The notes under the pieces are model-generated. The model was not told the origin of the DNA, made no database searches, and was given only the letters and a program-made list of their open reading frames with translations. A stretch of 64,000 nt of DNA from Candidatus Parcubacteria bacterium (GTDB lineage Bacteria > Patescibacteriota > Saccharimonadia > UBA4664 > JBIOIQ01), in the NCBI GenBank assembly GCA_963718875.1, contig OY970378.1, forward strand, positions 68,396-132,395. Direction: 5' to 3'. Below, piece after piece: positions 19,244 to 49,406 of the stretch (positions within the stretch are counted from its first letter, which is position 1; every line of letters starts with the position of its first letter). The position numbers were made by a program, and so were the translations under genes.

Positions 19244-19248
19244 GGCAT

Positions 19249-26462: not shown

Positions 26463-26504
26463 GCTTTAGATGTGCCCTCACGAGGAGGCTCCTTCTTTTA
26501 GCGG

Positions 26505-26533
26505 TCTATTGCACGGGTGCCTCCCGTGCAATA
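26505..26533 (+). terminator. hairpin downstream of dnaA
   Basis: ATTGCACGGG-TGCCTC-CCGTGCAAT, a perfect 10-bp inverted repeat, followed by ATTTCC (weak U-tract). Confidence 0.35.
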
Positions 26534-26624
26534 TTTCCAAACCAACCATCTTTTTGTGATTACCTTGGAAACTCCTCCATCGCCGCCACGTTAATGAGGA
26601 CGATGGAGGGTAGAACCGCGGCCG

Positions 26625-27056: not shown

Positions 27057-27207
27057 GTACGGTCCTTTCCGGTAGACGGATGCGTATCGCGATGTGAAGA
27101 GCTAGCCGAACTCATTCGACCCCCAAGTTGGCAAAGTTTGTAAACTTAGGGGTCGGCCCCGCCGCTGCCGGTTAGGGCAAACGGCGGGGCCAAAACAACA
27201 GTTGCAT

Positions 27208-27771: not shown

Positions 27772-27963
27772 CAGCTTTTGAAGAACGTCCTGAGCACAAA
27801 AAACAGTAAATATTGGGTGATGCGATCAGTTGGTTATAGATATTACACTATGAATCATAATTTGTCAAGTATTGAAAGGTTATTTTTTCTTTATATCTGT
27901 TAATTTATAAAATAACTCGGATAAATTGACGTATATATGAATAAATGATAATATTTAATTGTT

Positions 27964-28515: not shown

Positions 28516-28873
28516 ACCTTAAATTAGGGTTTTTAAAACCTGTGGTAATGCGACAAAACAGATTGCGTCCATGTATACTTTGGTAAGTAACTGGTAGTTT
28601 TGGAATGGTGGAAATAGTTCGGGAAAGGATGTGGGAAAAGATGATATTTCCCCAGTTTTGCATAAGCGCTTTGATAACTCATCCACAAGCACCAACACTT
28701 TACCCCACTCCCGCCCGCGGTTATCATGCTTATGTTCACAGTTTTATTTAAAGTATTATAACTTCACAAAGGCTTTTATAATGGTTATGCCCAGTGTCCC
28801 CAACCACTATAATTATGCTTACTGTCTTAAAGTCATCCTATAATAAACTAATAAGAAAGAGATAAGGGGATAA

Positions 28874-31392: not shown

Positions 31393-32870
31393 TAGTTCAC
31401 GTTACGGTTGTTAACCGGTTTGGAGTCGAATAGGAGTGTATTTGATTTGCTGTCGTATAAGTATAGTCGGATTGTGGTGAGGTCATAATATTCCATTTTG
31501 GCGCGGAAGGTTCGTTGGCTCATGGCAATATTAAAGTTGGCGGTGGCTTTGCCAGTGGGGTTTTTGCGGTCAATCGGTTCAAGATCAACGTTGGTTATAT
31601 CGACGACTTTGGGATTTAGGCTTGAGCTTAAGGCGTATTGGTAAATAGCGTACTTAAGGCTGCTTGACTGAGTGTTGGTTAAGCCATGCTTCATTAGTTC
31701 TTCTATGCCGGAATAGTTCCATTGGCTAGGCTTAAATGGTTCAATTTCCTTTGTATCTAGTTGTTCCGGAGAGGCAACGTAGGCGTTGTTACTGGAATCT
31801 AGCAGCAAAATTTGGTCATTTTCGTAAGCTACGACCTTTAAATTTGAAGGTATGGCCTGCCCTTTTGATAATTTAAAGCTTAGCTCAAAAATTTTGCCAG
31901 TTCCATCATCCAAGTATCCTGTGAGTTCGTTTTCGCCAACCGTTTCGACTGCAGCCCAAGCGTCGGCTGATCGGCTCCAGGCTGCTGTGCCAGAAAAGGC
32001 CGTATCGATGGTTGTGGGACTAGCCGTGTCGCTTAACGACAATAGTTGCAGGGGGCCGTTAACTTCGCTCAGGGCTTCTTGGCCTTTTTTAATTTCGATC
32101 GGGACTATTAATCCAGCTACCCCGCTGGTATTTAAAACAGTTAAACCTTTGAAATTGTCGTACAGGACTTGAACGGTTTGGTCTTTGATATTGAGCTGGC
32201 TCAAAGTGTGTTTATTGGCGGTATCGACTTTGTAAATAAGCTTATCTTGGTCCGCCCATAACAAATTCGGGCCATCAATTTTTGCCAAAGGGTTGTTGGG
32301 GCCACCTAATGATCCAGAGAATACCGTGTATTCGTATGGTTGGCTGCGGAAAAGTTGGATCTGGGTGTAGTAGTACGTCTCACCATCAATTGACCAAACG
32401 GCGCTATTTATAACTGTGCCGTCGGAAGCGGCGCCATCTGAAGACGGGCCTTGAGGCGAACCCACCAACTTTATTTGGCCGTTTGAGAATGATACAGACC
32501 ACCAGTATGATGCGTTGGACGGCAGTCGTTCTTGGTCAAGAATAGGCTTCAGCTGATCCAACGTGCTGTAGTCATTGGCTTTGAATAGGACACCATTTTT
32601 AGACCACTGGACTTCAAGAACGTTGGGTAGCGAATAGATTGGTGTTAGGGGGCTGGAGGCTTGAGTGGCCAGATCGAATTTTAAAAAGGTACTGCCGTTA
32701 AAATAGTAGGCTTCGGAAGGAGTTAGTTGGGCCGGATAACGAAAGTTGGAGGCTACAACTTTGCTAAAAAATAAGTTTTTTTGGGGAGACAATATTCTTT
32801 GCCCAAATAGCAGGATTGCAACCAAGACTACGGCTACTACAGCAACAGCAATTACTAATTTTTTATTCAT
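31392..32870 (-). CDS. secreted/membrane-anchored T4SS-associated protein (hypothetical, beta-rich)
   Basis: 492 aa, N-terminal signal anchor MNKKLVIAVAVVAVVLVAILLF, no recognisable catalytic motif; last gene of the minus-strand T4SS-like gene string. Confidence 0.5.
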   Translation of the reverse strand: MNKKLVIAVAVVAVVLVAILLFGQRILSPQKNLFFSKVVASNFRYPAQLTPSEAYYFNGSTFLKFDLATQASSPLTPIYSLPNVLEVQWSKNGVLFKANDYSTLDQLKPILDQERLPSNASYWWSVSFSNGQIKLVGSPQGPSSDGAASDGTVINSAVWSIDGETYYYTQIQLFRSQPYEYTVFSGSLGGPNNPLAKIDGPNLLWADQDKLIYKVDTANKHTLSQLNIKDQTVQVLYDNFKGLTVLNTSGVAGLIVPIEIKKGQEALSEVNGPLQLLSLSDTASPTTIDTAFSGTAAWSRSADAWAAVETVGENELTGYLDDGTGKIFELSFKLSKGQAIPSNLKVVAYENDQILLLDSSNNAYVASPEQLDTKEIEPFKPSQWNYSGIEELMKHGLTNTQSSSLKYAIYQYALSSSLNPKVVDITNVDLEPIDRKNPTGKATANFNIAMSQRTFRAKMEYYDLTTIRLYLYDSKSNTLLFDSKPVNNRNVN

Positions 32871-34045
32871 AGTACTCCCGGTAACTTTAGAAATGTGGAA
32901 ATTAAATTGGGCTGAGGGTCAATATAGTGCGTGCGCTCGGATTGGTCTTCGGTATTGGTAATCATAACGGAACTCATTTGAAAGTGGAGGTGTGGTGGGG
33001 TGCCTTCGGCGCAGGCAGACGGGCCAATAGTGCCTAGTTCTGTCCCGGCTGTTACTTCTTGTCCGTCGTGAATCTTAATAGACCCAGGTGACATGTGGGT
33101 GTAATAGTAATAAATGTTGTCAGTTCCCAAAATCTGCACCCTTGGTACATTTGTGCTTCCGGTACAAGTGGTGTCGACGGCTCTTATAACTGTACCGCCA
33201 ACAGCAGCCACAACTGGGGTGCCAATGGCGTCGAATATATCGGCCGCCCGGTAGTCGTGGTGACAGCTAGTGGGACTGTCGAAACACCAACCTCCAGCCG
33301 CCTTAATGGATTCTTGGGTGGTTTTTAGCGGAAATGTAAAATCGCCGCTAACCCCAAGTCCACCGCTGCAGGTGGGAGTGGTTCCTGGTGTAGGCGTGCT
33401 TACTGAAGCATTTGTGCTGCTTGTGGAGCTAGCATATAAATCATAGGCTTGTTGCGCATATTTGACGCGATCTTCAAAGTGAGCTCGGGCAGGATCTGGT
33501 CTTTCAAAACCGTCCATAAAAACCTTTGTGGCATCCCTTACTGTCGTTGTGCTTTTAAGGGTTGTTAAGGTTTCCCCATAGTCTTCGCTTAGTTCTTTCC
33601 ATAAAAAACCCAATTGGGGCTCGAGGGTGTTTACTGGCTTACTAACTGATTGGGCGTAGGCCACTAGTTTTTCTTGTCGCGATGGGAAGGTCCATTGGGC
33701 TATGCCAAAGCCTTCGTGTGGGTAGGGGTTGGGGTCTCCTTTGTGATTAGGGTTTTCTTGGGCAGTTGGGTCAATGATGCCGGCGCCTGATTCCCAGCGG
33801 ATGTTTCCTACTATGCCGGCGGATTGTTCCGGAGTTAGCCCTTGGCTGACAAAATATTTAAACGACGTTTCAATAGCGTCTGAGCCAATAAAAATTCCAG
33901 TGTCCTCCACGGTTTTACAGCGTTTTTCAGCATTATAATAAATTGCGTCGTAGTCGACAGATATTGGTACGTCGGCCAGAACTTGGGCTGGGAGCAAACC
34001 GATTAAAAGTGCCAATATAAGACGTCGTTTGATATAGGTTATCAT
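32867..34045 (-). CDS. secreted bifunctional cell-wall hydrolase: lysozyme-like domain + M23 (LytM) peptidase
   Basis: Signal peptide; GIVGNIRWESG...EGFGIAQWTFPSR resembles the phage-tail-type lysozyme family. C-terminal HHDYRAADIFDAIGTPVVAAVGGTV...THMSPGSIKIHDGQEV...PPHLHFQ is an M23 peptidase (HxxxD ... HxH). Confidence 0.6.
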   Translation of the reverse strand: MITYIKRRLILALLIGLLPAQVLADVPISVDYDAIYYNAEKRCKTVEDTGIFIGSDAIETSFKYFVSQGLTPEQSAGIVGNIRWESGAGIIDPTAQENPNHKGDPNPYPHEGFGIAQWTFPSRQEKLVAYAQSVSKPVNTLEPQLGFLWKELSEDYGETLTTLKSTTTVRDATKVFMDGFERPDPARAHFEDRVKYAQQAYDLYASSTSSTNASVSTPTPGTTPTCSGGLGVSGDFTFPLKTTQESIKAAGGWCFDSPTSCHHDYRAADIFDAIGTPVVAAVGGTVIRAVDTTCTGSTNVPRVQILGTDNIYYYYTHMSPGSIKIHDGQEVTAGTELGTIGPSACAEGTPPHLHFQMSSVMITNTEDQSERTHYIDPQPNLISTFLKLPGVL

Positions 34046-34048
34046 AGA

Positions 34049-36679
34049 TTAACTTCCGGTTACCGACCAGTGCCAAGGTTCGTTGGGAAGCAAGCCCTTA
34101 AGCCCATAGGTCCCAGCATTTTGTGATAACCAGGCAAAGCATTGATCTCCCCTGGACACTAGGCTGCCATTGCAGCTGAAGTCGATGGCGAGTCCCATTT
34201 GGTGGTTTGATTTACCTGGTGGGGCTACCTCTGCCCCACCTGAATCTCCGTTAAAAAGGTCCTGTTGGTGTTGCATGGTACGGAAGGTGCTGGTAGCCGC
34301 AATAGGTAGGTTGGCCGCTTTGGCGGCTGTTGCCAGGGCCAGGAAGGCTCCTGAGGCTCGCGAATTAACTAAGGCTAGGCCGTTGGCGCCGTTGATGTAG
34401 TATGGATCCCCTGGCGAGCTTTCTCTACTGCTACTCGCTAGGTTGGGGAGGGTGCAAAGTTTGATTTGGATGGGCGCCTCATTGTGATAGCCAGTATGGT
34501 TGCCGACTTCATTGGTTCCGGGAGAGCAGCCAATATTATCCGAGGGCTGGAAAACAGTGTTTAAATCAATTGTTCCACCAGCCGTAGTGCTGCTGCCGCC
34601 TACACCCGCAGCTGTAAGAAGAGGGTTTTTGTTTTTTAAACGCATAATGCCATGGATAACCATTTGGTCGGCTTTATATTGGCCGTAGCGTTGGGCGTCA
34701 ATGTCGCCTGCAAGGTTGTCGCATTTAGAGTTTGGGCCATCAATAATTCGTTGGGCGTAATCCTCAGAACTGCCGCCGTAGCACTTGTCATACTTACTCT
34801 TGAATGTTGCCAAGTTAGCTTCAATGTACTTGGCGTTTTCAAGTACTGGCCAGGTGGGAGCGTTGAGCGGAATCCCTACAAATGGTTGGCCAGTTACCGG
34901 GTCAACTGGGTCGGCCGCAAAGGCAGTTGGGGGTGAAACGGTGGCTAGGGCAAGCCGTCCGCTAGATAGTGCAAACTTGGCTGGACTAAAAATGGTCCCA
35001 AAAAAGTGGTTAATTTGCGCCAACATTCCGGAGGGTGATGATGGAATGGCAAACAAGGATTGGGTAAGTACGGAGCGAGGGTTGTTGGTATCAACTAGGC
35101 GCCAGGCAAGCCCTTTTTTCTTATCTAGAGCCAATCGCTCTTGGTGGATGACGGTTTCAAGAGCAACGTTTTCTGCAGGGGTGAGTTGTTTGCAACCGGC
35201 GCTGAAACAGGCGTTGTCGGCAATTATTTTGGTGCCTCCAGACATATAGTTGCCCCAGGCAAGTGGGCTGGCATTGGCTGATATGGCGGTGTGGGCCATT
35301 TGGGAAACTACGTGTACAGCCAAAGCTTTGCCGGCGATTCCAGCAAAAACTACCGCCCCGCCCGCTACAATCGATCCGACTACAGCTCCAACAGTGACGT
35401 TAACACCCGGAGTAAGAACAGCTCCTACTAAAAGCACTACTCCAGCGCCCGCTACCGCAAATTGCACGCCGGGCTTTAGGATGTAGGAACAAGCTTCTTC
35501 AATTTTAGGAATGCCTAAAAAGAAATTGAGAGCCTTGCCAACATTACCACCCGGTGGAGTGTTGGTTGGCTTGGCTTCATCACTAAGGCCTGGGCCGGTA
35601 ATCGGTTGCCCTGAAGCTTGCTGCGCGCCAGCGCTGTTTACAAAAGATTCTTGGCTGTTATCGAGCTTACTAGCAACGGCGCCAATGCCCGCTAATGGAA
35701 CTTGTCCTTGTTTTTGCCCATCGGCCCAAGCGTAAACCGACTCAGCGGCTTTTACGAGGCCTTCGGCCTTGTAAGCAATATAGGCTTTTTTGGAGGCACC
35801 CCAAATGTCTATGGCAATGCAGGCGATGGTCACTTTTGAAAAAATACTCAGGGCTTTACCAGTTGATTCAATTAACCTGGTAGCCGTGTTTTCAACCACA
35901 ACTTTGGGGTCACCGCCGTCTTGTACACCCTTTTTTGTTTCATCAACTGTGTCTTTAACCTCAGCGTCTGGAATTCCGCCTGGTCCCTTGCCTGGATCGT
36001 CAACTTTTGACTGAAGATCTTTGTCGACCGCCGCTTTTATGTCCGCGTCTGGTTTGGTGGTGTCTATGCTCGCTACCGAACGGTCTCTGACTTTGAATCT
36101 TGAATCGGTGTCGGCTCCTGGTGAACCCGATAAGTCTGATTTCATGTATGCGTCAACGTCGGCCTGGAGTTTTATTCGTTCCGGCGAGTCAAGATCAACT
36201 GGCAAGGGACCTTCGCCTTTAGCTTGAGATAGTTGGAGGTCCAGCGGGGCTTCTTTGGGTGCTGGGGCTTGACCTGCTTTTCCGGCTGGCACTGCTCTAG
36301 CGGCTTCCAGCGAGGCAGCAATGCGTTGGGATACAACTCGATTAAATTTGGCAAAGCGGTAAGAAATAAACAGCTCTTTTACGTGGTTAAGCTTAAACAA
36401 AAACAAGAACATAAAAAACAATATAAACGGTGCTAGAATTCCAATAATGCCGCCAACGCCAGCAATCATTTTCCAGCGTTTACTCAAGCCATTGATTTTG
36501 CCCTTCATGTTTTGGGCTTTCCCTTTGGATGATGCGCCTAGGCCAATTCCGTTTGCGCTTCCTCCGCCTCCGGGTTGGCTATCTTGGGCAAACTGATCGC
36601 GTGCGTCGTTTGAGGCAGTTTGTGGGGCCGACTCGTCTTGGGCGGTTGTTTCGTCTTCTGGTAGGGTACCCAGTGCCAT
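34049..36679 (-). CDS. large membrane protein with C-terminal M15 (VanY/LAS-type) peptidoglycan peptidase domain
   Basis: 876 aa; TM helix near residue 70, long Asp/Lys-rich linker, a Gly/Ala/Val-rich hydrophobic block, and C-terminal SNHQMGLAIDF...EPWHW characteristic of peptidase M15. Confidence 0.6.
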   Translation of the reverse strand: MALGTLPEDETTAQDESAPQTASNDARDQFAQDSQPGGGGSANGIGLGASSKGKAQNMKGKINGLSKRWKMIAGVGGIIGILAPFILFFMFLFLFKLNHVKELFISYRFAKFNRVVSQRIAASLEAARAVPAGKAGQAPAPKEAPLDLQLSQAKGEGPLPVDLDSPERIKLQADVDAYMKSDLSGSPGADTDSRFKVRDRSVASIDTTKPDADIKAAVDKDLQSKVDDPGKGPGGIPDAEVKDTVDETKKGVQDGGDPKVVVENTATRLIESTGKALSIFSKVTIACIAIDIWGASKKAYIAYKAEGLVKAAESVYAWADGQKQGQVPLAGIGAVASKLDNSQESFVNSAGAQQASGQPITGPGLSDEAKPTNTPPGGNVGKALNFFLGIPKIEEACSYILKPGVQFAVAGAGVVLLVGAVLTPGVNVTVGAVVGSIVAGGAVVFAGIAGKALAVHVVSQMAHTAISANASPLAWGNYMSGGTKIIADNACFSAGCKQLTPAENVALETVIHQERLALDKKKGLAWRLVDTNNPRSVLTQSLFAIPSSPSGMLAQINHFFGTIFSPAKFALSSGRLALATVSPPTAFAADPVDPVTGQPFVGIPLNAPTWPVLENAKYIEANLATFKSKYDKCYGGSSEDYAQRIIDGPNSKCDNLAGDIDAQRYGQYKADQMVIHGIMRLKNKNPLLTAAGVGGSSTTAGGTIDLNTVFQPSDNIGCSPGTNEVGNHTGYHNEAPIQIKLCTLPNLASSSRESSPGDPYYINGANGLALVNSRASGAFLALATAAKAANLPIAATSTFRTMQHQQDLFNGDSGGAEVAPPGKSNHQMGLAIDFSCNGSLVSRGDQCFAWLSQNAGTYGLKGLLPNEPWHWSVTGS

Positions 36680-38674: not shown

Positions 38675-39433
38675 TTATTGTCCAAATGGTCCTGCTAATG
38701 GTGGTGGCGGGGCTTGACCTACGCCCTTGGTGACGGCAGCTGTTTGGAGTTGGCTAGCGTCAATCATTTTTTGGTTAGGGGCAACGTCTGGGTTGTAGGA
38801 AGCATAGTAGAGGTCAATGAGCTCTTGGGTATTGAGCGGGATGGCTCTAAGTCCCATTTGCGCGAGCCCCGCTGATACTAGCTGTACGCGTTGGGCTAGT
38901 TCGGATTTGGCTTTCTCGAAATCAGCGGCTGTAACAGTTATAACGGGTACCGGTTTAAAGATATTGGCGAGTCCTGAAGCCACATTGATTTTTGAAGGGT
39001 CAAGATGGGGGTAAAACGGCACCACAATAAAAAACAACTTGTCCATAATGTTGACTTCTTCGATCAAGCCCTTGATGTTAGCTATGTAATCGTCCATAAG
39101 CTCGGCTAAAAGTGCATTGCCTTGGTCTGAGCGAAGCTTACCAAGGTTGTCGATGTAGCTATCGAGGTCAATTTTTTGGGATTTAATTACAATTTGAAGC
39201 GGGAAATGTAAAGAGTTTAAAAATCCTTGATAAGCATATTCTACGGCGTCTTGTTCTTGCTGGCTCATCAGGTCAAAATTGATGGCGCTGGTCAAAATGA
39301 CTGCGCGCAAACTGCCATCGCGCAACACCACAACTCCATCTTTAATTTCAGATATCAGGAGGCTGCCTTGGGTGCTTTTGGTGCTGGCAGTTACAGGATG
39401 GGCTGGTTGGTTGATGGGGGGAGTTTTTGCCAT
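38675..39433 (-). CDS. VirB4 N-terminal-domain protein (separate ORF)
   Basis: 252 aa; LRDGSLRAVILTSAINFDLMSQQEQDAVEYAYQGFLNSLHFPLQIVIKSQKIDL resembles the N-terminal domain of VirB4/TraC-type proteins. A 125-bp gap to the ATPase ORF is filled by heptamer repeats. Confidence 0.5.
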   Translation of the reverse strand: MAKTPPINQPAHPVTASTKSTQGSLLISEIKDGVVVLRDGSLRAVILTSAINFDLMSQQEQDAVEYAYQGFLNSLHFPLQIVIKSQKIDLDSYIDNLGKLRSDQGNALLAELMDDYIANIKGLIEEVNIMDKLFFIVVPFYPHLDPSKINVASGLANIFKPVPVITVTAADFEKAKSELAQRVQLVSAGLAQMGLRAIPLNTQELIDLYYASYNPDVAPNQKMIDASQLQTAAVTKGVGQAPPPPLAGPFGQ

Positions 39434-39573: not shown

Positions 39574-40599
39574 CTAGGCTGCGGGCTGATCTGGATGTAT
39601 CGCTACGGCTTGGCCTTCCACAAGTACTGCCGGGCTGGTGGCCTGGGCGGCAATTTGGCTCACCTGGCTCACCTTCAGGTCGGGCGTCTCCATGGCTCTC
39701 TTTAGTATATCAGCAATGGGATTTGTAGTCATCTCGCTTATGTTGGCTTGGGCTGTTTGGACCACGGCTGCAGAGGGTACGATGGCTGGCGGAATGGGTG
39801 CTGACTGCATTACAGCTGTTGGAGCAGTTTCTGGACTGGGCGTAGGAACTGAATTAGGTTGGACTGACAGAGTCGGAAGGTTTTGACTTTGAGTGGGGGC
39901 TGTTGGCTTGGTAAGGTCGCCGGGGTGAGCGTGGATTGGTGAGGGAAGTTCTTCGCGGATTTTTTGCATGACCTCGTCGTGAATACTTTTTTCGGAGTCC
40001 TCAATCAGGACGCTCAAGTTGCGGGCAGACTGATTGTTATCAAGGTCGAGCATGTCGTCTTCCATGTTGACTACGGATGTGGGTCGAATAGGAGCTATGT
40101 CGAGTTCATTGGTCTTTAAACGCCCGTCCAAGTCTATTACCGGATGTTCTGTGGGCTCCTGTACCTCTGGCTGCTTGCTTTCCCATCCCCTGGTATCAAC
40201 TATTTGGGCTAATTTTTCGAGCTGGCCGCGGACTTCGCGTGGGTCGCGGTGGGCTTCTTCGGGTTTGGGCAATGGTTGCTCAATTTTGAACACTTCTGCA
40301 ACATCCTCCTTAAGCCAGATGCGCTGACGAGGCTTAAACCAAAAGTTAACCAGTGCTAAAAAGTAGGCTTCAAATGGCTGGCCCTCACGTTGGTAAAGGC
40401 CAAGCAGTAGCATCATAGCTGTGGGTGGGACTCCAATAAGTACAAAAAGTATTAGGGCTTTTTTGAATATCTGAAAAGTCAGCAGTCCGTAGGCTACGCC
40501 AATAACGGCGTAAATGAACTGCTTAAGGGTTAAAACCCCAATTATCTTATCTTCGGCTTCGACGTCCTGAGGGACTTTATACTGACCCATTAAGCACAA
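39574..40599 (-). CDS. VirB3-like small-membrane-domain protein with long Pro-rich C-terminal extension
   Basis: The first ~100 aa hold two TM helices (LKQFIYAVIGVAYGLLTF / LILFVLIGVPPTAMMLLLG) immediately upstream of virB4, as for VirB3/PrgI; the remainder is an acidic/proline-rich low-complexity tail. Confidence 0.45.
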   Translation of the reverse strand: MCLMGQYKVPQDVEAEDKIIGVLTLKQFIYAVIGVAYGLLTFQIFKKALILFVLIGVPPTAMMLLLGLYQREGQPFEAYFLALVNFWFKPRQRIWLKEDVAEVFKIEQPLPKPEEAHRDPREVRGQLEKLAQIVDTRGWESKQPEVQEPTEHPVIDLDGRLKTNELDIAPIRPTSVVNMEDDMLDLDNNQSARNLSVLIEDSEKSIHDEVMQKIREELPSPIHAHPGDLTKPTAPTQSQNLPTLSVQPNSVPTPSPETAPTAVMQSAPIPPAIVPSAAVVQTAQANISEMTTNPIADILKRAMETPDLKVSQVSQIAAQATSPAVLVEGQAVAIHPDQPAA

Positions 40600-40964: not shown

Positions 40965-41390
40965 TTGCTGATAGCTCTCGACGCCAATATTTTTATCTAC
41001 GTTCTTGAACGTGACTATCAGTTTGGGCCGCAGGCTTTAGCTATCTTAAAAGCAGCCGAGTTGGGTACAATCGATGCTGTTACCTCTGAGCTGGTGTATC
41101 TGGAAACACTGGCAAACAGTAAACTGCAGGCTAGCGATGTTAATCGCATCAATCGATTGCTGGAACTTTCAGGAGTAGTATTTGAGCCAATTGAAAAACC
41201 GGTTGTTTTGGAGGCCGCAAGATTAAGGCGCATTTATGGGATTAAAACCCCCGACGCCATTCATATTGCCAGCGCACTTGGTGTAAAGGCTACCCATTTT
41301 GTAACCAACGACAAGCAGTTGTTGAGGCTCAAGATTGCTGGACTTGAAATAGTTTCTCTCGATCAGGCTCTTTTGTTGAGTGAAGCATGA
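40965..41390 (+). CDS. vapC: PIN-domain toxin VapC
   Basis: 141 aa; LDANIFIY ... ETLAN ... TNDK acidic residues spaced as in PIN domains. Confidence 0.65.
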   Translation: MLIALDANIFIYVLERDYQFGPQALAILKAAELGTIDAVTSELVYLETLANSKLQASDVNRINRLLELSGVVFEPIEKPVVLEAARLRRIYGIKTPDAIHIASALGVKATHFVTNDKQLLRLKIAGLEIVSLDQALLLSEA

Positions 41391-41490: not shown

Positions 41491-43572
41491 TTAAGGGGTT
41501 CCCGGCAGTCCTTGGTGTTCGATCTTACCGGTGTCAGCAATGTAGTCGTTAAAGAAGTCAACGCCAGTCATATCCCGATTGTCGAACCTTATGCTTTCTG
41601 CTGCCAAGATATTGTGGAATTCGTTGTCGGTTCGAACCTTATCTTTGAAATACGCAACGAGTTGTTGGTCAACCTTGGAGCGTTGATCAGCTGAACTAGC
41701 GATAGTACGGAAGTTGCTGAGCGCCTTTGATACACGGTCTTTTTTGCCTGCAGCAACGTCGGCTGGGTTAGCATCGGTTCCAACAGGAGCCATGATACGG
41801 TTGAAATATTTGTCGGCACCTGAACCATGGATTGATGCTACCTGAGAGGCGCTTAAACCATCATAGGCAACATGTTTTTTGCCTGGGTTAAGCATAGGAA
41901 TGGCTTGAATGGCTTGGGGCATGACGCCACTAGAGCCCATGCCTCGGAACCAGGTATCAGCTGATTCATTGCCAGTAGGTAGGCCCAAACCAGCAATGTA
42001 CTCACCTTTGTAATTGTCTCTCGTAGGATCAAAAATTTGAGCATGAATTTTATTTAGCTCAACGTTGCCGCCTTGCTTAGCAATTTGACCTATAGCTTGA
42101 GCTTGCATGGCTTTGGTAATTTTTTCCTTTTTTGTTCTACCATCTAGCCCGGTGTAAATAAAATCATTGCCGTGTCCTGCCAAAACAACTTTTTTCATTA
42201 AGTCATCATTACTAAGCCCAAGATCATCGAATCTGATGCCCCAGTCTTTCATTTGGGCGCCAATGGCAGCGTCATAGCCTTTAGCTAGTCGACGTCGACC
42301 AGGTTGTCCTAGGCCGGGTTGCCCAGCTCGGGCTCGTCCCAATGCGCGTTCCCATTTATGGCTCGCGTCACGTTGGGCAATAAAGCCCTTTTCCTGACGT
42401 GATTCTTTGATATCTTTCTTTAACTGGCCACCAAGAAAGCCTTTGGCACGATCCTGAGAGCCAAACACCCTACCGGAAACAGTTCCCATAATGCCACTGG
42501 CGATCTTGAAAGTTGCTGGTATGGCCAGGAACACTAGGATGGGGATGAGGCTGGCAAAAATAACGTTAATTTCGTGCGAGCCAAAAATGCCGTCGGTCTC
42601 GCTAGCAACTCGGGCTAGAAACCCACCGATGGAAAGCAGGATAACAATTAGCGGGTACACTAAAATAACCCGAACCATGTTTTTTACCCACTGCTTAAAG
42701 TAAACTTCGGTGTTGGGCAATACCCAAGCGGCAAAAGCCAGTGGTGAGAGTACAATTAAAACAGCAATAATTAGTTGTCTTAGGGCCAGCGTAAAGAATA
42801 CCCCCAGCACACTGATGATGAATCCACCTAGCATCAAGAGGATGGCCGGCCAGGTCAAAATAACTCCGGCTATGACAGCGGTTAGTCCGGCTATACCAAA
42901 AGTGATTATCGAACCGACATTAAAAATACCGTGAGTTATGTCTTGAGAGGTTCCGGCGGTTGTTCCTAACTGGCTCATGATGCTACCTATGCCGGCACCA
43001 GAAACATTACCGATATCAATGATGAAGGCGGTTACAAAGAAAGATACTTGCACTCCAATGGCGGCAATTATGAGTTTGGGTAAGAGGCTTTTAAGGGCGT
43101 ATGAGCCTTCAGATGAAACCATGTTTCCAAAAATTAAGGCTAGGAAAATGAGGATAAACATTACATCGGCCAAGTTTCGAATAGCTTTCCAAGCTTCGTA
43201 GAGGCCGCTGTCTTGGGTTAGCGGCTTGGTTTCAAGCATATCAATTACGAGCTTGCTAATCTTGGCCACGGTTTCAACGCCAGCATTAATAAGCGGGCAA
43301 ACAATCCAGCCCAAGCCTCCCCCGCTACATGATGGTTTGGTGTAGCTACTAGGGTCGGAATCGCCATTACCGCCGGGAAGAATTGGTGCAGTGCTAGTTG
43401 GGCTTGTAGAAGTGGGTGATGTTGTGGAGGTTGTTCCTGGTGTAGTGGTTGTGGTTGTACCAGTTGAGGTGGTTGCGGGTGCGGTTTGGGCGTACACTAA
43501 GCTCGCTTGACTCATGCAGAGCCAGGCGATAAGTAAGGTGATTAAACCGGTTGCGAACCTTCGAATGGACAT
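41491..43572 (-). CDS. VirB6/TrbL-family polytopic T4SS membrane protein with Thr-rich N-terminal region
   Basis: 693 aa; signal peptide, TTSTGTTTTTTPGTTSTTSPTSTSPTST linker, then six or more TM helices and a C-terminal cytoplasmic domain. Confidence 0.65.
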   Translation of the reverse strand: MSIRRFATGLITLLIAWLCMSQASLVYAQTAPATTSTGTTTTTTPGTTSTTSPTSTSPTSTAPILPGGNGDSDPSSYTKPSCSGGGLGWIVCPLINAGVETVAKISKLVIDMLETKPLTQDSGLYEAWKAIRNLADVMFILIFLALIFGNMVSSEGSYALKSLLPKLIIAAIGVQVSFFVTAFIIDIGNVSGAGIGSIMSQLGTTAGTSQDITHGIFNVGSIITFGIAGLTAVIAGVILTWPAILLMLGGFIISVLGVFFTLALRQLIIAVLIVLSPLAFAAWVLPNTEVYFKQWVKNMVRVILVYPLIVILLSIGGFLARVASETDGIFGSHEINVIFASLIPILVFLAIPATFKIASGIMGTVSGRVFGSQDRAKGFLGGQLKKDIKESRQEKGFIAQRDASHKWERALGRARAGQPGLGQPGRRRLAKGYDAAIGAQMKDWGIRFDDLGLSNDDLMKKVVLAGHGNDFIYTGLDGRTKKEKITKAMQAQAIGQIAKQGGNVELNKIHAQIFDPTRDNYKGEYIAGLGLPTGNESADTWFRGMGSSGVMPQAIQAIPMLNPGKKHVAYDGLSASQVASIHGSGADKYFNRIMAPVGTDANPADVAAGKKDRVSKALSNFRTIASSADQRSKVDQQLVAYFKDKVRTDNEFHNILAAESIRFDNRDMTGVDFFNDYIADTGKIEHQGLPGTP

Positions 43573-43807: not shown

Positions 43808-46522
43808 TCACGGCGGTGGCGGTGGCGGTGGCGGTGGCGGTGGCGGTGGCGGTGGCGGTGGCGGTGGCGGTGGCGGTGGCGGTGGCGGTGGCGGTGGCGG
43901 TGGCGGTGGCGGTGGCGGTGGCGGTGGCGGTGGCGGTGGCGGTGGCGGTGGCGGTGGCGGTGGCGGTGGCGGTGGCGGTGGCGGTGGCGGTGGCGGGCCT
44001 GATACAGAAGGTGGGGGCGCCTTAAGAGTTTTTGATGCACGGTCAACATGGTTGTCAAGGAAGTCTTGTAGGCTCATTTCATTACCGTTGAGAGTAATTT
44101 TGTGTGCCCGGGTGTTAACAGTAGGGTCTGACTCAAGAGCTAGAAGTGCTTCTACGCCCTTGCTTGAAAAGTTGGTTCTAGAAGTGGAATCTTCCATGAC
44201 TTGAGCGATTTGACCCATAAGGGGGTCAATTCTGCCTTCACTTGCAGCAAGCTCAACAGCTTCGGCTTGGCGCTCTTTAGAAAAATTGGCAAGCGCTTGA
44301 CCATTGGCTCCTCGGAGTTGCTCGTAGCCGTCAGGACGGAAGCCAGATTTTGCAGCCCAAGAACCATTGGATCCTTCGTGAGCATTCGACCATAGTTGCG
44401 CGGCTTTTGTTGCGTTGATCCTTCCCCCAGTTTTTGCTTTCAGCTTATTTGGGTCAAATTTACCATTTGCGCCTTGAAGACCTGCAGAAGTATGTACCAC
44501 TGCTCCAGTTTCGTCTTTCCAGTCGCCGCCTTGCATAAGTTTGGCGTATTCTGAGCTCCCTCCATTGCGCATTAGTCTTTCAAGAGCTGCTTGATACATT
44601 TGATCGTCCATTTTGGTTCCATCTGGTAATTCTCCCTTGGCCAAGGCTAAACCTAAGGCCACGTTGTCCGGGGTAAGACGCTTAAGCGTCTCGTCGTGGT
44701 CTTTGCGTCTAGCGGCCTCGGCGGCACCGATACTGGCATTCCTTCTTCGTTGGCCTGTCGGCCCATAGCTAAAAGCATTGCCCGATCCGACCCGACCCAG
44801 AACTTTTTTTATGCGGCCAGAGTCTGGGTCGCCCATCATAAGAGCGGCTTTTTCTCGGCTGGATTCTTTGGCATTTTTCATCAAGCCATTACTTCTTAGG
44901 CCCTTGCTCATTTTGCTGGCTCTCCCCTGAATGGCGCCGCTGACTGCTCCCATAAGCGTTCCCGAGGCCTTAAGGGTTTTTAATACCAAGAAAAATAAAA
45001 TGATGGGACCTAAGGATGACATAACTTGTTGGATTGGATCGCTTGCATTCCCCACCAAAGCCGGAAAGTCACTAATGATTTTGCCAGCGTAAATAAGAAT
45101 TACGATCATAGGGAACATTAGTAGTAGCTTAATTAAATTGGTGGACCACATTTTGAATAACTTTTCGGTATTGGGTAGTACCCAGGCAGCAAGTGCAATC
45201 GGAGACATTAATACCAAGAGATAGAGAATTATTATTCTGGCTTCGAGAGTAACAAATACTGCCAGGATCGAAACTAATGCACTTGCTAGTAAAAGTAACA
45301 AGGGTATTACAAGCCCTACAGCAACAGCGGCTGTGCCGGCAACAGCACCAATAGCCACAGCTTCTAGCCCTCCAAAGAATTGAATGGTACCACTATTGCC
45401 GCTACTAACGTCGTTTAAGGTGCTAAGTGGGGCTAAGAGTCCGCCTATGCCTCGTCCTAAAACATTGGTAAAGTCGATGGCAAAGGCCATAAGTACAAAT
45501 GAAAATTGCACCAAAATAACTGATAGTACTAGTCGTGGTAAAACTTTTTTAATGGTGTAGGCGTCTAAACCTAGGGCGTTACTTCCCAAAATAGCAAAGA
45601 ATATTAAGACAAAAAACACGTTGGCAATGTTTCGAATAATTACCCAGGCTTGGTAAACTGTGGTTGCGTTGCCACTACTATCTTCTGATGCCAGCGGGGC
45701 TGATTGGAGATAATTCAAAATTCTTGTTTCCAAGAAATTGACGGACCCTGTGGCCATGGAAATTAGCGGGCAAAGAATCCAACCTAACCCGCCTTGAATG
45801 TTGCATTTATCTTTAATGGAACCTGAATTTGAGGAGGCAAGACTAACTGAAGCATCGGGCGGCGTATTGCTGATAAGGACGGTACGCGTATCATTTGATT
45901 CGCATGCGTAGGTATTAAAAAATCCCACAATGGTTCTTTGAGTTTTCCTAGGGGTGAAGCGGCCAGTTTCACTGTTAGGGGCGGTTTGGACGGTGCTATG
46001 GCAGTCGCCACTGTTTTTTTGGCCGTAGATATTGGGTTCTGCTGAATTGTTTTGAAAAATTTCGGCCCCAATTTCATCATGTTGTCCGGTTTTAGCCCCT
46101 TTTAGCTCAAAATCGTAATTTGTGAAGGCCGGAGTTAAGGTGTCACCACTGGTCCTATAAAAGTAGACAGATGCTCTGGCTACTTCGCCCATTTCGAGCG
46201 GACGCTCACCGTCATATATGCAGTCAGAGTTGGCGGGATTGGAATGAAAGGAAAATAGGGTGGCTTTTGAGCTAGGATTTGGACTGCCCTCAAACCGTCC
46301 AATCCAGTTTGAGCAGGTTTTGTCGCCATTCAAATAATATTGACGTCCACTATCACCCAGAATGTTATCGATATAGACATCGTTGCCAACCTTGATATGG
46401 GCAGCGTCCAGCCAGGTGGCGTCAGCTGCATAAGCTGGAGTGGTAGGTAGGAGGACGGCGATCATGGGGATCAACACCAATAACATAAACGCTAATGCGC
46501 TTTTTTGCCTCAACCGGTTCAT
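43808..46522 (-). CDS. VirB6/TrbL-family polytopic T4SS membrane protein with large N-terminal ectodomain and ~60-residue C-terminal polyproline tail
   Basis: 904 aa; signal peptide, ~220-aa extracellular domain, multi-TM core paralogous to 41491-43572, C-terminal KAPPPSVSG(P)n encoded by the microsatellite. Confidence 0.65.
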   Translation of the reverse strand: MNRLRQKSALAFMLLVLIPMIAVLLPTTPAYAADATWLDAAHIKVGNDVYIDNILGDSGRQYYLNGDKTCSNWIGRFEGSPNPSSKATLFSFHSNPANSDCIYDGERPLEMGEVARASVYFYRTSGDTLTPAFTNYDFELKGAKTGQHDEIGAEIFQNNSAEPNIYGQKNSGDCHSTVQTAPNSETGRFTPRKTQRTIVGFFNTYACESNDTRTVLISNTPPDASVSLASSNSGSIKDKCNIQGGLGWILCPLISMATGSVNFLETRILNYLQSAPLASEDSSGNATTVYQAWVIIRNIANVFFVLIFFAILGSNALGLDAYTIKKVLPRLVLSVILVQFSFVLMAFAIDFTNVLGRGIGGLLAPLSTLNDVSSGNSGTIQFFGGLEAVAIGAVAGTAAVAVGLVIPLLLLLASALVSILAVFVTLEARIIILYLLVLMSPIALAAWVLPNTEKLFKMWSTNLIKLLLMFPMIVILIYAGKIISDFPALVGNASDPIQQVMSSLGPIILFFLVLKTLKASGTLMGAVSGAIQGRASKMSKGLRSNGLMKNAKESSREKAALMMGDPDSGRIKKVLGRVGSGNAFSYGPTGQRRRNASIGAAEAARRKDHDETLKRLTPDNVALGLALAKGELPDGTKMDDQMYQAALERLMRNGGSSEYAKLMQGGDWKDETGAVVHTSAGLQGANGKFDPNKLKAKTGGRINATKAAQLWSNAHEGSNGSWAAKSGFRPDGYEQLRGANGQALANFSKERQAEAVELAASEGRIDPLMGQIAQVMEDSTSRTNFSSKGVEALLALESDPTVNTRAHKITLNGNEMSLQDFLDNHVDRASKTLKAPPPSVSGPPPPPPPPPPPPPPPPPPPPPPPPPPPPPPPPPPPPPPPPPPPPPPPPPPPPPPPPPPPPPP
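43816..43995. repeat. perfect (GGTGGC)n hexanucleotide microsatellite, ~30 units
   Basis: About 180 bp of uninterrupted GGTGGC repeats; on the minus strand the TrbL-like ORF frame reads CCA CCG = Pro-Pro. The other frames give the artefactual RW/AV/HR ORFs in the track. Confidence 0.95.
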
Positions 46523-46594: not shown

Positions 46595-46624
46595 TTGACA
46601 TTGTGGTTTTGCTTCGGATATGAT
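46595..46624 (+). promoter_or_regulatory. candidate sigma70-type promoter for the pilin array
   Basis: TTGACA (46595-46600), 18-nt spacer, TATGAT (46619-46624), 8 nt upstream of the first pilin ATG, in the divergent region between the TrbL gene and the pilin genes. Confidence 0.35.
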
Positions 46625-46631
46625 CTAGCTA

Positions 46632-47336
46632 ATGAAAAAGTTAACAGCTCTAATCCCAGTCCTTGCTTTTGCAGTTGTAGTCACATTGTTATTTAGTCCA
46701 CGCGCTGCATTGGCGGATGAAAAAAGTCATTTGTATGGTAACTCAATATCGGAGTGCCGACCCGGGAGCTATTTGTTGTCTGAGCAAGCTGGGCCGGCGC
46801 TCGGAAATTCCTGTTTAACGTTGAGCGATGATAGGACTACTTATTCATCCGCGCCGGCGTCATCCGGTGCTTGTCCAGACAATAGTGAGGGCGCCAGGGG
46901 ATTTAAAGCCAGGCAAGGCACCGATCCAGCGCGATGTTTTTATTTTCAAACCGGTACACTTGAAGTTTCAACCCCTTCTTTATCTACGCCCACGCCTCAA
47001 GCCGGGACATCTCAGGCGTTTCAAGGAGGCTGCAATAACGGCGGCGTCAAGCTAGGGATTAATATTAACTCGAGTGATAATAATTGCGCCGGGGGCAATG
47101 GCGTAAACCCAATTTACGCTTATTTGCGCAGTATTATCCGTTTTGTATCGGGGCTGTTTGGGATAATTGCGGTATTAATGGTAATTCTGTCTGGTTTTCA
47201 ATACATGACATCCGCTGGCAGTCCAGAGGCTGTAAAAAAAGCTAAAAGCCGCTTGGCAAATGTAGTCTTGAGCATTATTGTATTTGCCATGATGTTTGGC
47301 ATCCTTAACTACTTGATTCCGGGAGGGGTAATTTAA
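46632..47336 (+). CDS. VirB2/TrbC-like pilin paralog 1 with extended Cys-containing N-terminal domain
   Basis: 234 aa; signal peptide; C-terminal ~75 aa has the shared two-helix module (IRFVSGLFGIIAVLMVILSGFQYMTSAGSPEAVKKAKSRLANVVLSIIVFAMMFGILNYL). Confidence 0.55.
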   Translation: MKKLTALIPVLAFAVVVTLLFSPRAALADEKSHLYGNSISECRPGSYLLSEQAGPALGNSCLTLSDDRTTYSSAPASSGACPDNSEGARGFKARQGTDPARCFYFQTGTLEVSTPSLSTPTPQAGTSQAFQGGCNNGGVKLGININSSDNNCAGGNGVNPIYAYLRSIIRFVSGLFGIIAVLMVILSGFQYMTSAGSPEAVKKAKSRLANVVLSIIVFAMMFGILNYLIPGGVI

Positions 47337-47683
47337 TGCATGCGTTTAAGATTTTGGCTGCTGCATGCACGCCGGGCGGTAACAATACTAGTTTTTTGTT
47401 GCCAGATCTTTACAAGGGTTTGCGAGGGTCCGACGGTCTCTGCATTACGAGCTTAACCGCTATTGAAGTATTGCTCATGAACATAGTGCAAATAATATTG
47501 GCTTTAGCGGGACTGGCGGCGGTATTCATGGTGATTTTTGCTGGATTTACTTACATTACTTCCAATGGTAACGCTCCCCAAATTACCAAAGCTAAGGATA
47601 CGTTGATAAACTGGGCGTTTGGTTTACTTATAATTATTGGTGCTTATGCTATTGTGGGTCTAGTGGCAGGAGCTTTGAACTAA
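47336..47683 (+). CDS. VirB2/TrbC-like pilin paralog 2
   Basis: 115 aa; signal peptide + hydrophobic helix - GNAPQITKAKDT - hydrophobic helix; start overlaps the previous stop. Confidence 0.55.
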   Translation: MHAFKILAAACTPGGNNTSFLLPDLYKGLRGSDGLCITSLTAIEVLLMNIVQIILALAGLAAVFMVIFAGFTYITSNGNAPQITKAKDTLINWAFGLLIIIGAYAIVGLVAGALN

Positions 47684-47684
47684 G

Positions 47685-47990
47685 ATGGCTGTTGAATTTT
47701 TAGCTCAAGCCCAACAGCTTTGTCGGACTGCGGCTGATTGTGGCCTTCCTAATGTGGCTTTTACCAGCAGTACTTTGGGTCAAATTATTAGCTTGTTATA
47801 TAAGGTGTTGGCGGCCTGCTCAATTTTATTTCTTATGTTTGGGGCCTTTAAATACGCTGCTTCAGGTGGCGACTCAGCGGGTATAAAAAACGCCAAAGAA
47901 ACAATTTTGTACGCAGTTTTTGGCCTGATTATTAGTCTTTTAGCCTTTGTTGCGGTAACATATCTATCGAACAGAGCGGGAGGATTATAG
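47685..47990 (+). CDS. VirB2/TrbC-like pilin paralog 3
   Basis: 101 aa; ...FGAFKYAASGGDSAGIKNAKETILYAVFGLIISLLAFVAV. Confidence 0.55.
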   Translation: MAVEFLAQAQQLCRTAADCGLPNVAFTSSTLGQIISLLYKVLAACSILFLMFGAFKYAASGGDSAGIKNAKETILYAVFGLIISLLAFVAVTYLSNRAGGL

Positions 47991-48394
47991 TGATTAAGCT
48001 AAAATCGGCATTTTTGACATTGCTTGTGGCTGTTGGCCTAGGCGGTGGATTAAGTGTGGTTCTTCCCTCGCTGGCTTTGGCAGCTGATACGCCTTCGCAA
48101 ATTATCACTACTCAAGCCTGTAAAACCAATCCATCTGCCCTTGGCTGCCGTGCAAACGATAAAGTCTTTGGTGCTGGCAGCATATTTAATAACGGCATAG
48201 CCGTATTGATAGGTTTAATAGCTTCAGTCTCGGTGGTGATGGTAGTAGTTGGTGGCTTGCGTTACGTGCTTTCTGGTGGCGATTCAGCTGGTATAAAAAG
48301 CGCTAAAGATACCATTTTGTATGCATTAATTGGGTTGGGTGTGGCGTTGGTGGCGTTTTTGATTGTTGGGTTTGTAATAGGAAGAATAGGATAA
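47990..48394 (+). CDS. VirB2/TrbC-like pilin paralog 4
   Basis: 134 aa, GTG start overlapping the previous stop by 1 nt; VVGGLRYVLSGGDSAGIKSAKDTILYALIGLGVALVAFLIVGFV. Confidence 0.55.
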   Translation: MIKLKSAFLTLLVAVGLGGGLSVVLPSLALAADTPSQIITTQACKTNPSALGCRANDKVFGAGSIFNNGIAVLIGLIASVSVVMVVVGGLRYVLSGGDSAGIKSAKDTILYALIGLGVALVAFLIVGFVIGRIG

Positions 48395-48395
48395 C

Positions 48396-48812
48396 ATGAG
48401 TATTATGAAACGAAGATTTCGAGATTATATTTATACCTCCGCCTTGCTGGCTCCAGCTGTTTTGCTTGGTGGGCGAGCCCTTGCAGTAGATCCCAACTCC
48501 CCTACAGCGCAGGCTTGCACTGGTATTGGCGGTACGCTTAATGCAGCTGGTAAATGTGTGGTCGCTACCTCTAGCGGCAAGGTTGGTGATCTGGGCACAG
48601 CTTTTAAAGCAGTGGCTAACACGCTCATTTTTGTTGTAGGGGCGATTTCGATCATCATGGTTATTATTGGGGGCTTGCGCTACGTGCTTTCAGGGGGTGA
48701 TTCAGCTGGGATAAAGAGCGCTAAAGATACGGTTTTATATGCCCTCATTGGTGTGGGCGTGGCAATTGTGGCTTATGCGCTAGTTAACTTTGTCATAACT
48801 GCAATCACATAA
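48396..48812 (+). CDS. VirB2/TrbC-like pilin paralog 5
   Basis: 138 aa; IIGGLRYVLSGGDSAGIKSAKDTVLYALIGVGVAIVAYALVNFV. Confidence 0.55.
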   Translation: MSIMKRRFRDYIYTSALLAPAVLLGGRALAVDPNSPTAQACTGIGGTLNAAGKCVVATSSGKVGDLGTAFKAVANTLIFVVGAISIIMVIIGGLRYVLSGGDSAGIKSAKDTVLYALIGVGVAIVAYALVNFVITAIT

Positions 48813-48924
48813 TCCAAATTAATTTTTATTATTCTTATGCTTAAATGTTGTTTTGGCCTAGTCAAGCGTTAGCAATTGTGATACAAAGAAACAGTAAACA
48901 AGCCTTTAAGGAGAACTTATTCAA

Positions 48925-49350
48925 ATGACACAAACAATAAAATCGTTGGGTGGTAGGGCAGCTGGTGCAGCCGTATTAATAGCTACATTTGGTACTGGAG
49001 CATATGCTGGAACGCCAGTAACATGTGACCCTACAACAAGTACCGATCCTATTCAAAGCGGCGTAAACTGCAGTCAGCCTGCAGGTAGGGCTGGAAATTC
49101 CCAACTTTTTGGTGGGACCGGATCTATTTTCCAAACTGTTGCTAATACACTTATTTTCATCGTAGGAGCTGTTTCAGTAGTAATGCTTATCATCGGTGGC
49201 TTGCGTTACGTATTGTCGAGTGGTGAAGCCTCAGCTGTTAAGGGTGCTAAAGACACCATTCTTTACGCCATTGTGGGTATTGTAGTGGCTATTCTGGCCT
49301 TTGCGGCCGTATCGTTTGTGACTGGTCGATTTGGCGAGCCTACTGCTTAA
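48925..49350 (+). CDS. VirB2/TrbC-like pilin paralog 6
   Basis: 141 aa; IIGGLRYVLSSGEASAVKGAKDTILYAIVGIVVAILAFAAVSFV. Confidence 0.55.
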   Translation: MTQTIKSLGGRAAGAAVLIATFGTGAYAGTPVTCDPTTSTDPIQSGVNCSQPAGRAGNSQLFGGTGSIFQTVANTLIFIVGAVSVVMLIIGGLRYVLSSGEASAVKGAKDTILYAIVGIVVAILAFAAVSFVTGRFGEPTA

Positions 49351-49367: not shown

Positions 49368-49406
49368 ACAAAAAAATCGCCTCTGGTAATGAGGCGATTT
49401 TTTTGA
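49368..49406. terminator. bidirectional rho-independent terminator (pilin array / hsp20)
   Basis: AAAAAAATCGCCTC-TGGTAAT-GAGGCGATTTTTTTG: perfect 8-bp GC-containing stem flanked by an A-run and a T-run. Confidence 0.8.

Follow-up and report, generated by a model that had tools for sequence, protein, structure and literature searches.

The six small genes at positions 46,632 to 49,350 of the DNA analyzed here are shown to form the pilin array of a type IV secretion system (T4SS) located near the replication origin of a Saccharimonadia bacterium, and to be the positional orthologs of SEML1_0014-0019 of Southlakia epibionticum. The window is a 64,000-nucleotide (nt) stretch of contig OY970378.1 (assembly GCA_963718875.1, forward-strand positions 68,396 to 132,395), and the six genes are referred to as P1 to P6. 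The explanation that best fits the data as a whole is that they encode differentiated pilin subunits that are assembled together by the secretion system, which we consider fairly probable.

The surroundings of the array match those of an experimentally studied system. The gene order of the window is that of SEML1_0001-0022, gene for gene, when compared with the supplementary tables of Wang 2023 (PMC10633639); the comparison used gene order, membership in family PF18895, lengths, and gaps from the published tables. In S. epibionticum ML1, SEML1_0001-0003 are dnaA, dnaN, and recF, and the minus strand carries a lysozyme (0006), VirB4 (0008), PrgI (0010), and two VirB6-like proteins (0011 and 0013). 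SEML1_0014-0019 are plus-strand PF18895 genes encoding 132, 185, 103, 126, 127, and 138 amino acids (aa), with gaps of 26, -4, 5, 20, and 83 nt, followed by Hsp20 (minus), ComFC (plus), and a tRNA (Wang 2023, PMC10633639). Similarly, the window array diverges from a minus-strand T4SS cluster of Gram-positive type, with recF, dnaN, and dnaA beyond the cluster, and on its 3' side lie a convergent Hsp20 gene, a gene for a ComF-type phosphoribosyltransferase, and tRNA-Arg. In both arrays, all six PF18895 genes share a strand and diverge from a VirB6-like gene, the third gene is the shortest, and the last one is set apart by a spacer (83-112 nt). The window differs in having a longer P1 (234 versus 132 aa) and a shorter P2 (115 versus 185 aa), and its secretion cluster has an inserted PIN-domain gene and a VirB6-like protein with a 62-proline tail. 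In transposon sequencing (Tn-seq), each of the six S. epibionticum pilins was scored as growth-defective and then as essential (Wang 2023, PMC10633639). Essentiality for epibiotic growth is known from this Tn-seq work for S. epibionticum only (Wang 2023, PMC10633639), and the system has been reviewed (PMC12857230).

The six proteins have the architecture of VirB2/TrbC-type pilins. The initial annotation of the window had described six consecutive plus-strand open reading frames (ORFs) of this kind, and both points hold: the six ORFs were all verified on the plus strand, all six proteins pass the PF18895 threshold, each has two strongly hydrophobic C-terminal segments by hydropathy, and an AlphaFold2 model of P4 contains the hairpin. 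The annotation had also assigned the same C-terminal module to every protein. The architecture is indeed common to the six, but the pairwise identity of the modules is only 21-59%, and the loop motif GGDSAGIK-AK-(D/E)T-(I/V)LYA is exact in P3, P4, and P5 only. It is approximate in P6, and P1 and P2 keep the skeleton Y..S.G.....AK, which comprises the invariant loop columns of the six-paralog alignment. The signal peptide claimed for each protein is present in part of the series. Judged from a hydrophobic N-terminal segment with an AxA site, it is clear in P1, P4, and P5 and weak in P6, while P2 and P3 have none, and the ORFs of these two cannot be lengthened upstream. The P2 N-terminus (ILAAAC) is not taken for that of a lipoprotein because the segment has only 10 residues, lacks a long hydrophobic core, and has Ala rather than Leu, Val, or Ile at position -3.

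Membership of the six proteins in PF18895 (T4SS_pilin) is firm, as judged by profile scores. These are 39.7, 33.0, 29.8, 27.6, 28.0, and 29.9 bits for P1 to P6, all above the Pfam gathering cutoff of 26.6 bits, which is also passed by 44 of 44 aligned homologs. All six have sub-threshold matches to the NCBIfam model NF045849 (Mbov_0395 family), with scores of 19.7-36.2 bits against a cutoff of 40 bits and E values of 3.5e-9 to 5e-4, and the alignments span nearly the whole 80-position model in every case. No other Pfam or NCBIfam family scored above threshold for the six proteins. The AlphaFold2 model of P4, based on a 44-sequence alignment, has a mean predicted local distance difference test score (pLDDT) of 78, and its helices at residues 65-94 and 99-133 exceed 90. 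A sequence search of the PDB with a profile of the six paralogs gave no meaningful match (the best was methane monooxygenase, E 0.36), and a Foldseek search of the P4 model against the PDB gave nothing at E <1.

Table 1. Features of the pilin array and of the adjacent secretion cluster in the window
Feature	Position	Strand	Basis or description
Two cell-wall hydrolases, VirB1-like role: 876 aa with C-terminal VanY; 392 aa with phage-tail lysozyme and M23 peptidase	32867..36679	-	domain matches
VirB4-type ATPase, 622 aa	36681..38549	-	TraG P-loop 92.9 bits, AAA_10, CagE_TrbE_VirB
TrsD/TraD-like protein, 252 aa, similar to the VirB4 N-terminal part	38675..39433	-	sub-threshold NCBIfam matches to TrsD and VirB4 N-terminal region
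PrgI-family protein (VirB3-like)	39574..40599	-	PF12666, 54 bits
Second VirB6-like paralog, 693 aa, counterpart of SEML1_0011	41491..43572	-	translation compared by eye, synteny
Multi-pass membrane protein, 904 aa, VirB6-like, counterpart of SEML1_0013	43808..46522	-	synteny, published Foldseek annotation of the S. epibionticum gene
Promoter-like site TTGACA-18-TATGAT, 11/12 matches, putative function	46595..46624	+	consensus scan only
P1, class-1 pilin-like, 234 aa	46632..47336	+	PF18895 39.7 bits; TrbC 27.1 bits; class-1 model 102 bits versus 55 for next class
P2, class-2 pilin-like, 115 aa	47336..47683	+	class-2 model 68 bits versus 58
P3, class-3 pilin-like, 101 aa, shortest	47685..47990	+	class-3 model 74 bits versus 61
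P4, pilin-like, 134 aa, GTG start	47990..48394	+	class ambiguous among 4, 5, and 6
P5, pilin-like, class 5/6, 138 aa	48396..48812	+	signal peptide (cleavage between ALA and VD), Cys41-Cys54 loop, hairpin
Spacer, 112 nt, AT-rich, unstructured, AAGGAG ribosome-binding site ahead of P6	48813..48924	+	sequence, folding
P6, pilin-like, class 5/6, 141 aa	48925..49350	+	weak signal peptide (cleavage between ..TGAYA and GT), Cys34-Cys49 loop, hairpin
Bidirectional intrinsic-terminator hairpin A7-UCGCCUC-loop-GAGGCGA-U7, between convergent P6 and Hsp20	49370..49404		folding

The position and internal order of the array are conserved in distant relatives. Related loci were found by probing with the adjacent VirB6-like protein, which retrieved 39 metagenome loci and one genome locus (L001), a metagenome-assembled genome of Ca. 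Saccharimonadales that is a relative at 32% identity. A hidden Markov model (HMM) built from the six window modules detected 162 pilin ORFs in the retrieved loci and the window. The array is found at the same position in 22 independent related loci, and it diverges from the VirB6-like gene in every one; as in the window, Hsp20 and ComF come after it in L001 and the metagenome loci. Together with the PF18895 scores and the two hydrophobic segments of each protein, this recurrence is far beyond chance. Copy number could be determined in the 21 related loci with enough upstream DNA: there are six genes in 15, seven in five, and eight in one (L033), and the window is the sixteenth six-gene array. 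Another locus, L031, yielded only five pilin genes and has a 372-nt gap at the place expected for class 4. Among the 16 six-gene arrays, the best BLAST match was at the same position in 237 of 240 comparisons for position 1, 222 for position 2, 193 for position 3, and 134 for position 4 (each out of 240), and the best matches of positions 5 and 6 are almost interchangeable. HMMs for each class, built without the window sequences, recovered the order 1-2-3-4-(5/6)n in 21 related loci with five to eight pilin genes, with no class 4 detected in L031. The surplus copies in the seven- and eight-gene arrays all belong to class 5/6. These models assign P1, P2, and P3 to classes 1, 2, and 3, and place P4 to P6 within the 4/5/6 group with little discrimination among them.

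Each class has its own sequence features. Class-1 proteins combine a signal peptide with a hypervariable ectodomain of about 60 to 240 aa (2-10 Cys) and a module whose C-terminus is LIPGG. P1 follows this plan: its signal peptide has a predicted cleavage site between AALA and DE, its variable ectodomain contains 6 Cys, and its hairpin module ends in LIPGGVI; the N-terminal extension had been described as Cys-containing, which is correct, and as 150 aa long, but its mature length is only about 130 aa. In class 2 a signal peptide is usually missing, and the proteins have exactly two Cys and the motif FFGxPxWYxYL. P2 likewise has two Cys, and its version of the motif is divergent (FLLPDLYKGL). 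Class 3 is the shortest, mostly without a signal peptide, and has GLPxV before helix 1, as P3 does (CGLPNVAF, immediately before the helix). A signal peptide and a single Cys-x(8-14)-Cys loop characterize classes 4 to 6. In P4 there are a signal peptide (cleavage between ALA and AD), a Cys44-Cys53 loop, and the hairpin, and the Cys pair is nearly invariant across the 44 homologs. Class 5/6 is the most conserved class, it is present in two to four copies, and the last copy is preceded by a spacer with its own strong ribosome-binding site. In place of a signal peptide, classes 2 and 3 start with a short conserved amphipathic peptide (for example M..L..FAAAC or M..L..FAQ), and the aromatic motif of class 2 (FFG[LFI]PxWYxYL) is strongly conserved. 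This N-terminal peptide and the class-2 aromatic motif might mark a dedicated insertion or processing route.

The divergence of the classes is old. Module identity is 0.40-0.59 between orthologs and 0.26-0.46 between classes within a genome, with class 5 versus class 6 at 0.65, and the identity of the ectodomains between genomes is 0.19-0.29. The longest exact DNA word shared by window paralogs is 17 nt. The same codon is used at 24-57% of conserved residues among them (30-51% among P4 to P6), and synonymous sites are saturated. The absence of any longer shared word and the low codon sharing show that there was no recent gene conversion among the window paralogs, and no recent recombination tracts between paralogs, which the initial annotation had proposed looking for across strains, were found in the window. 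At the level of sequence comparison, the six genes are shown to be a differentiated series conserved across distant relatives and not a set of equivalent copies.

The first five genes are closely packed, while the last has a separate start signal. The gaps from P1 to P5 are -1, +1, -1, and +1 nt, and the start of P2 overlaps the stop of P1 (TAATG). Properly spaced Shine-Dalgarno sequences (GGAGG, AGGAG, GGAGG, and AAGGAG) are present at the internal genes. The description of the genes as overlapping or abutting therefore applies to P1 through P5, but P6 lies behind the spacer with its own ribosome-binding site. This arrangement is widespread: 15 of the 16 six-gene arrays have a 60-113 nt spacer ahead of the last pilin gene, a GAAAGG-type ribosome-binding site is conserved in these spacers, and the first five genes are nearly always translationally coupled across the arrays compared. 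Two other roles for the P5-P6 spacer were considered and rejected. Promoter signal was no higher than in shuffles (19 spacers), and there was no stable RNA fold (z +1.7). Upstream of the array, the promoter-like site in Table 1 is the best in the region. It ends 7 nt ahead of the P1 ATG, and inspection of the sequence upstream of the P1 start found no Shine-Dalgarno sequence; the mRNA of P1, the first gene of the operon, may for these reasons undergo leaderless translation. The terminator hairpin downstream has a folding energy of -23.2 kcal/mol (z -6.0), and none of 200 shuffles was equally stable; it is absent from a separate pattern-scan listing.

These features are consistent with a structure built from several kinds of pilin subunit. 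The hairpins would be inserted in the cytoplasmic membrane with the short loop (Y..S.G.....AK) in the cytoplasm and the disulfide-bonded N-terminal parts outside, and the clearly basic class-1 loop (KKAKSR) is in line with the positive-inside rule. The machine formed by VirB4, VirB3, and the VirB6-like proteins would then extract the hairpins and assemble them together into one envelope-spanning or extracellular structure, perhaps a pilus or a short conduit that reaches the host cell. Class 5/6, being multi-copy, the most conserved, and equipped with its own ribosome-binding site, would supply the bulk subunit. Classes 1 to 4 would be low-copy specialized subunits (tip, adhesin, initiator, or adaptor) that take over roles of VirB5 in Gram-negative systems. 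Class 1 is the best candidate for host contact because of its variable, Cys-rich ectodomain. The structure would support life as an epibiont by delivering effectors or by uptake from the host rather than by conjugation. A more specific version, which is possible but doubtful, is an ordered heteropolymeric structure of VirB2 type in which class 5/6 forms the bulk, class 1 a host-binding tip, and the signal-peptide-less classes 2 and 3 an initiator or adaptor that replaces VirB5. If true, this would give T4SS pilins their first minor-pilin-like system and Gram-positive-type T4SSs their first pilus, and the heteropolymer would be the physical link by which Saccharibacteria exploit their hosts.

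Several results weigh against a co-assembled VirB2-type structure. Co-assembly, stoichiometry, and the tip and bulk roles are all things that we infer. Published reviews call the role of this T4SS "completely unknown", and no filament of these proteins has been seen in any Patescibacterium. The essentiality of the upstream S. epibionticum genes in Tn-seq could partly reflect polar effects in the operon. P4 scores best on class 6, at 81 bits versus 74 for class 4, and the class scheme is fuzzier in the window lineage because P4 is not clearly class 4. The similarity to classical VirB2 is also marginal. The scores of P1 and P2 against PF04956 (TrbC/VirB2), 27.1 and 27.0 bits (E about 5e-6), miss the gathering cutoff of 27.9 bits by less than 1 bit, and P3 to P6 have no match to this model, while 14 of the 44 homologs reach E<=1e-3. 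The profile comparison with VirB2/TrbC that the initial annotation called for has the expected register, with the segment before helix 1 matched to the NNIxxFIxG segment, but the hhalign E values of 0.083 and 0.053 (probability about 1%) are not significant. The profile used for annotated plasmid VirB2/TrbC is narrow, containing six proteins, five of them alphaproteobacterial and one from Acidithiobacillus, and the VirB2 query sequence is 99.2% identical to an annotated "pilin major subunit VirB2". Thousands of unrelated structures match a helical hairpin of this kind, and for that reason the fold is no proof by itself. A kinship to classical VirB2 is plausible if weakly supported, since it is based mainly on the near-threshold TrbC matches and the T4SS context.

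The strongest competing explanation is that there is no filament, and that the hairpins remain in the cytoplasmic membrane as parts or accessories of a translocation channel. This is a serious rival, even though we regard it as unlikely. Gram-positive-type T4SSs are generally without pili, and according to a FEMS review pilin-like subunits are required for transfer even in pilus-less systems. In addition, the Mbov_0395 family of Mycoplasma integrative and conjugative elements (ICEs), to which all six proteins have sub-threshold matches, is found in wall-less monoderms, and the lack of signal peptides in P2 and P3 would suit proteins that stay in the membrane. On the other hand, differentiated paralogs with disulfide-type Cys pairs and a large variable class-1 ectodomain look exposed and prone to interaction, and class 5/6, with its several copies and separate translation, has properties that would suit a bulk polymer subunit, although neither argument is decisive. 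Less probable again is a repertoire of six interchangeable major pilins that vary a surface structure for adaptation to host strains or evasion of defenses, as proposed for the VirB2 paralogs of Bartonella and Anaplasma, an analogy offered by Quinonero-Coronel 2025 (PMC12102498). The initial annotation had left the choice between a heteropolymer and sequence variation; the class order, motifs, and divergence seen in the comparative data favor heteromeric assembly and disfavor variation. The ectodomains are poorly conserved between genomes, and the wide ranges of length and Cys content in class 1 would also suit a variable surface. However, positions 1 to 3, and mostly 4, are ancient ortholog classes with a fixed order and class motifs. 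The window paralogs lack recombination tracts and long common DNA words, the genes form a single, tightly coupled operon in which no switching elements are evident, and all six S. epibionticum genes are individually essential and therefore not redundant. The fixed class order, old divergence, and individual essentiality together argue against interchangeable variants. The change in class 5/6 copy number leaves some room for variation, as the identity of these copies within a genome (0.65) is greater than that of orthologs between genomes, which fits lineage-specific duplication or concerted evolution.

Two further explanations deserve little weight. An older annotation in TM7x, "Sec secreted array" or "putative effector genes", implies soluble effectors secreted by the Sec pathway and delivered to the host. 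Four of the six window proteins do have signal peptides and the label was used in the earlier literature, but every member ends in two strongly hydrophobic helices and belongs to the pilin family, and two lack a signal peptide, which makes this idea highly improbable. The least probable explanation is that these are holin-like or bacteriocin/immunity-like small membrane proteins unrelated to secretion. They are small, with two transmembrane helices, and fold searches return only generic hairpins. However, the array is linked to the T4SS in all related loci, its neighbors are T4SS and housekeeping genes with no phage genes nearby, and no competing Pfam or NCBIfam family was found. In PHROGs the six proteins have no holin match, and P1 has one weak match to a family of unknown function (E 9.5e-4). 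The initial annotation had named assignment to such a family as the outcome that would speak against pilins, and nothing of the kind was found.

Arrays of this kind have been surveyed across the Patescibacteria. Near virB4 genes in 383 assemblies there are 441 arrays of 2-11 PF18895/PF04956 genes (Quinonero-Coronel 2025, PMC12102498), which are commonest in Saccharimonadia and Microgenomatia and have a within-array identity of 25% on average and 54% at most (PMC12102498). The corresponding range for the window modules is 21-59%. The survey treats the copies as variable paralogs and, with Bartonella and Anaplasma as its analogy, suggests that they provide antigenic or host-range variation (PMC12102498). 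Its text does not describe a fixed class order, class motifs, or classes lacking signal peptides, and neither "ortholog" nor "signal peptide" occurs in it.

The array resembles several better-known systems in part. Classical VirB2/TrbC proteins (PF04956, for example VirB2 of Agrobacterium) are also small, with a hydrophobic helix, a short loop, and a second helix, and are encoded in T4SS clusters with VirB3, VirB4, and VirB6. In contrast to the window, they have one pilin gene per system, always a long signal peptide, and a separate VirB5 tip protein; the window has six differentiated genes, two of them without signal peptides, and Cys-loop ectodomains, and its sequence similarity to the classical family is sub-threshold. 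The Mbov_0395/MMCAP2_0565 pilin-like protein of Mycoplasma ICEs is, like the window proteins, a hairpin protein of a monoderm T4SS, but those elements are mobile and conjugative and have a single pilin-like copy. The pilins and pseudopilins of type IV pili and type II secretion offer an analogy only. They too are differentiated paralogs with one hydrophobic assembly module, with abundant and low-copy subunits encoded in an operon, but their fold and machinery are unrelated, with a single N-terminal helix, a prepilin peptidase, and PilB/GspE ATPases.

The class scheme adds specific, testable predictions to a system of a known kind. Arrays like this one have been published, reviewed, and experimentally tested in S. 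epibionticum, and the window is a further orthologous example rather than a system of a new type. Few functions have been demonstrated to be essential in a cultivated Saccharibacterium; the T4SS with its pilin array is one of them, and the literature openly calls its role unknown. The class order, motifs, two classes lacking signal peptides, Cys pairs, expansion of class 5/6 only, and spacer point to one multi-subunit structure and not to interchangeable variants. The scheme thereby narrows the hypotheses for the tractable species S. epibionticum and TM7x, and it nominates class 1 as a candidate determinant of host specificity.

The secretion cluster next to the array is a chromosomal, origin-proximal T4SS of Gram-positive type, and it is probably non-conjugative judging from its gene content, in agreement with Wang 2023 and Quinonero-Coronel 2025. 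The Pfam scan of 37 window ORFs, a set that does not include every small ORF, yielded neither a relaxase nor a coupling protein, and no VirB5 homolog was found among the ORFs scanned. A reading of the locus as an ICE or other mobile element was rejected because its chromosomal synteny (dnaA, recF, Hsp20, and ComF) is conserved in distant genomes and no relaxase was found. The 904-aa protein has no Pfam match, so its VirB6 label comes from synteny and the published Foldseek annotation. It has the motifs GLGWI-CP, YxAWxxxRN, and AWVLPNTE in common with the 693-aa protein. A tandem VirB6-like pair is also found in S. epibionticum (SEML1_0011 and SEML1_0013), and there is only one such protein in L001. 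The C-terminal tail of the 904-aa protein, about 62 prolines, is encoded by a perfect hexanucleotide repeat, (GGCGGT) x 30.8 with 100% identity, at 43812-43996. Such a polyproline rod is uncommon for a T4SS channel protein, and the L001 ortholog has no proline tail. The perfect repeat suggests either rapid in-frame length change or an assembly artifact.

The function of VirB4 is split between two genes in this cluster. The 252-aa TrsD-like protein is encoded 125 nt upstream of the 622-aa P-loop ATPase, and the same layout is found in L001 (333 + 645 aa) and in S. epibionticum (SEML1_0009 + SEML1_0008). The PIN-domain (VapC-like) gene lies at 40965-41390 on the plus strand, opposite to the cluster that contains it, between the PrgI gene and the gene for the 693-aa protein. 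L001 has no counterpart of it at the equivalent position.

Other parts of the window also have distinctive features. The distance between dnaA and dnaN is about 2.4 kb (26462-28874), compared to 267 nt in S. epibionticum, and the gap contains a 233-aa ORF without a family and a 183-aa ORF that matches only the asparaginase N-terminal domain. Between about 52000 and 62000 the GC content is 0.51-0.55, versus 0.43-0.48 over most of the window, and the GC skew is flattened. Many short overlapping ORFs are present there on both strands, and there was no Rfam match in the region. A polysaccharide biosynthesis cluster extends from about 4700 to 20400, mostly on one strand (plus). It includes a Wzt-type ABC transporter ATPase, several GT1/GT4 glycosyltransferases, a methyltransferase-glycosyltransferase fusion, a GDP-mannose 4,6-dehydratase encoded on the minus strand, and an O-antigen-ligase-like Wzy_C protein.

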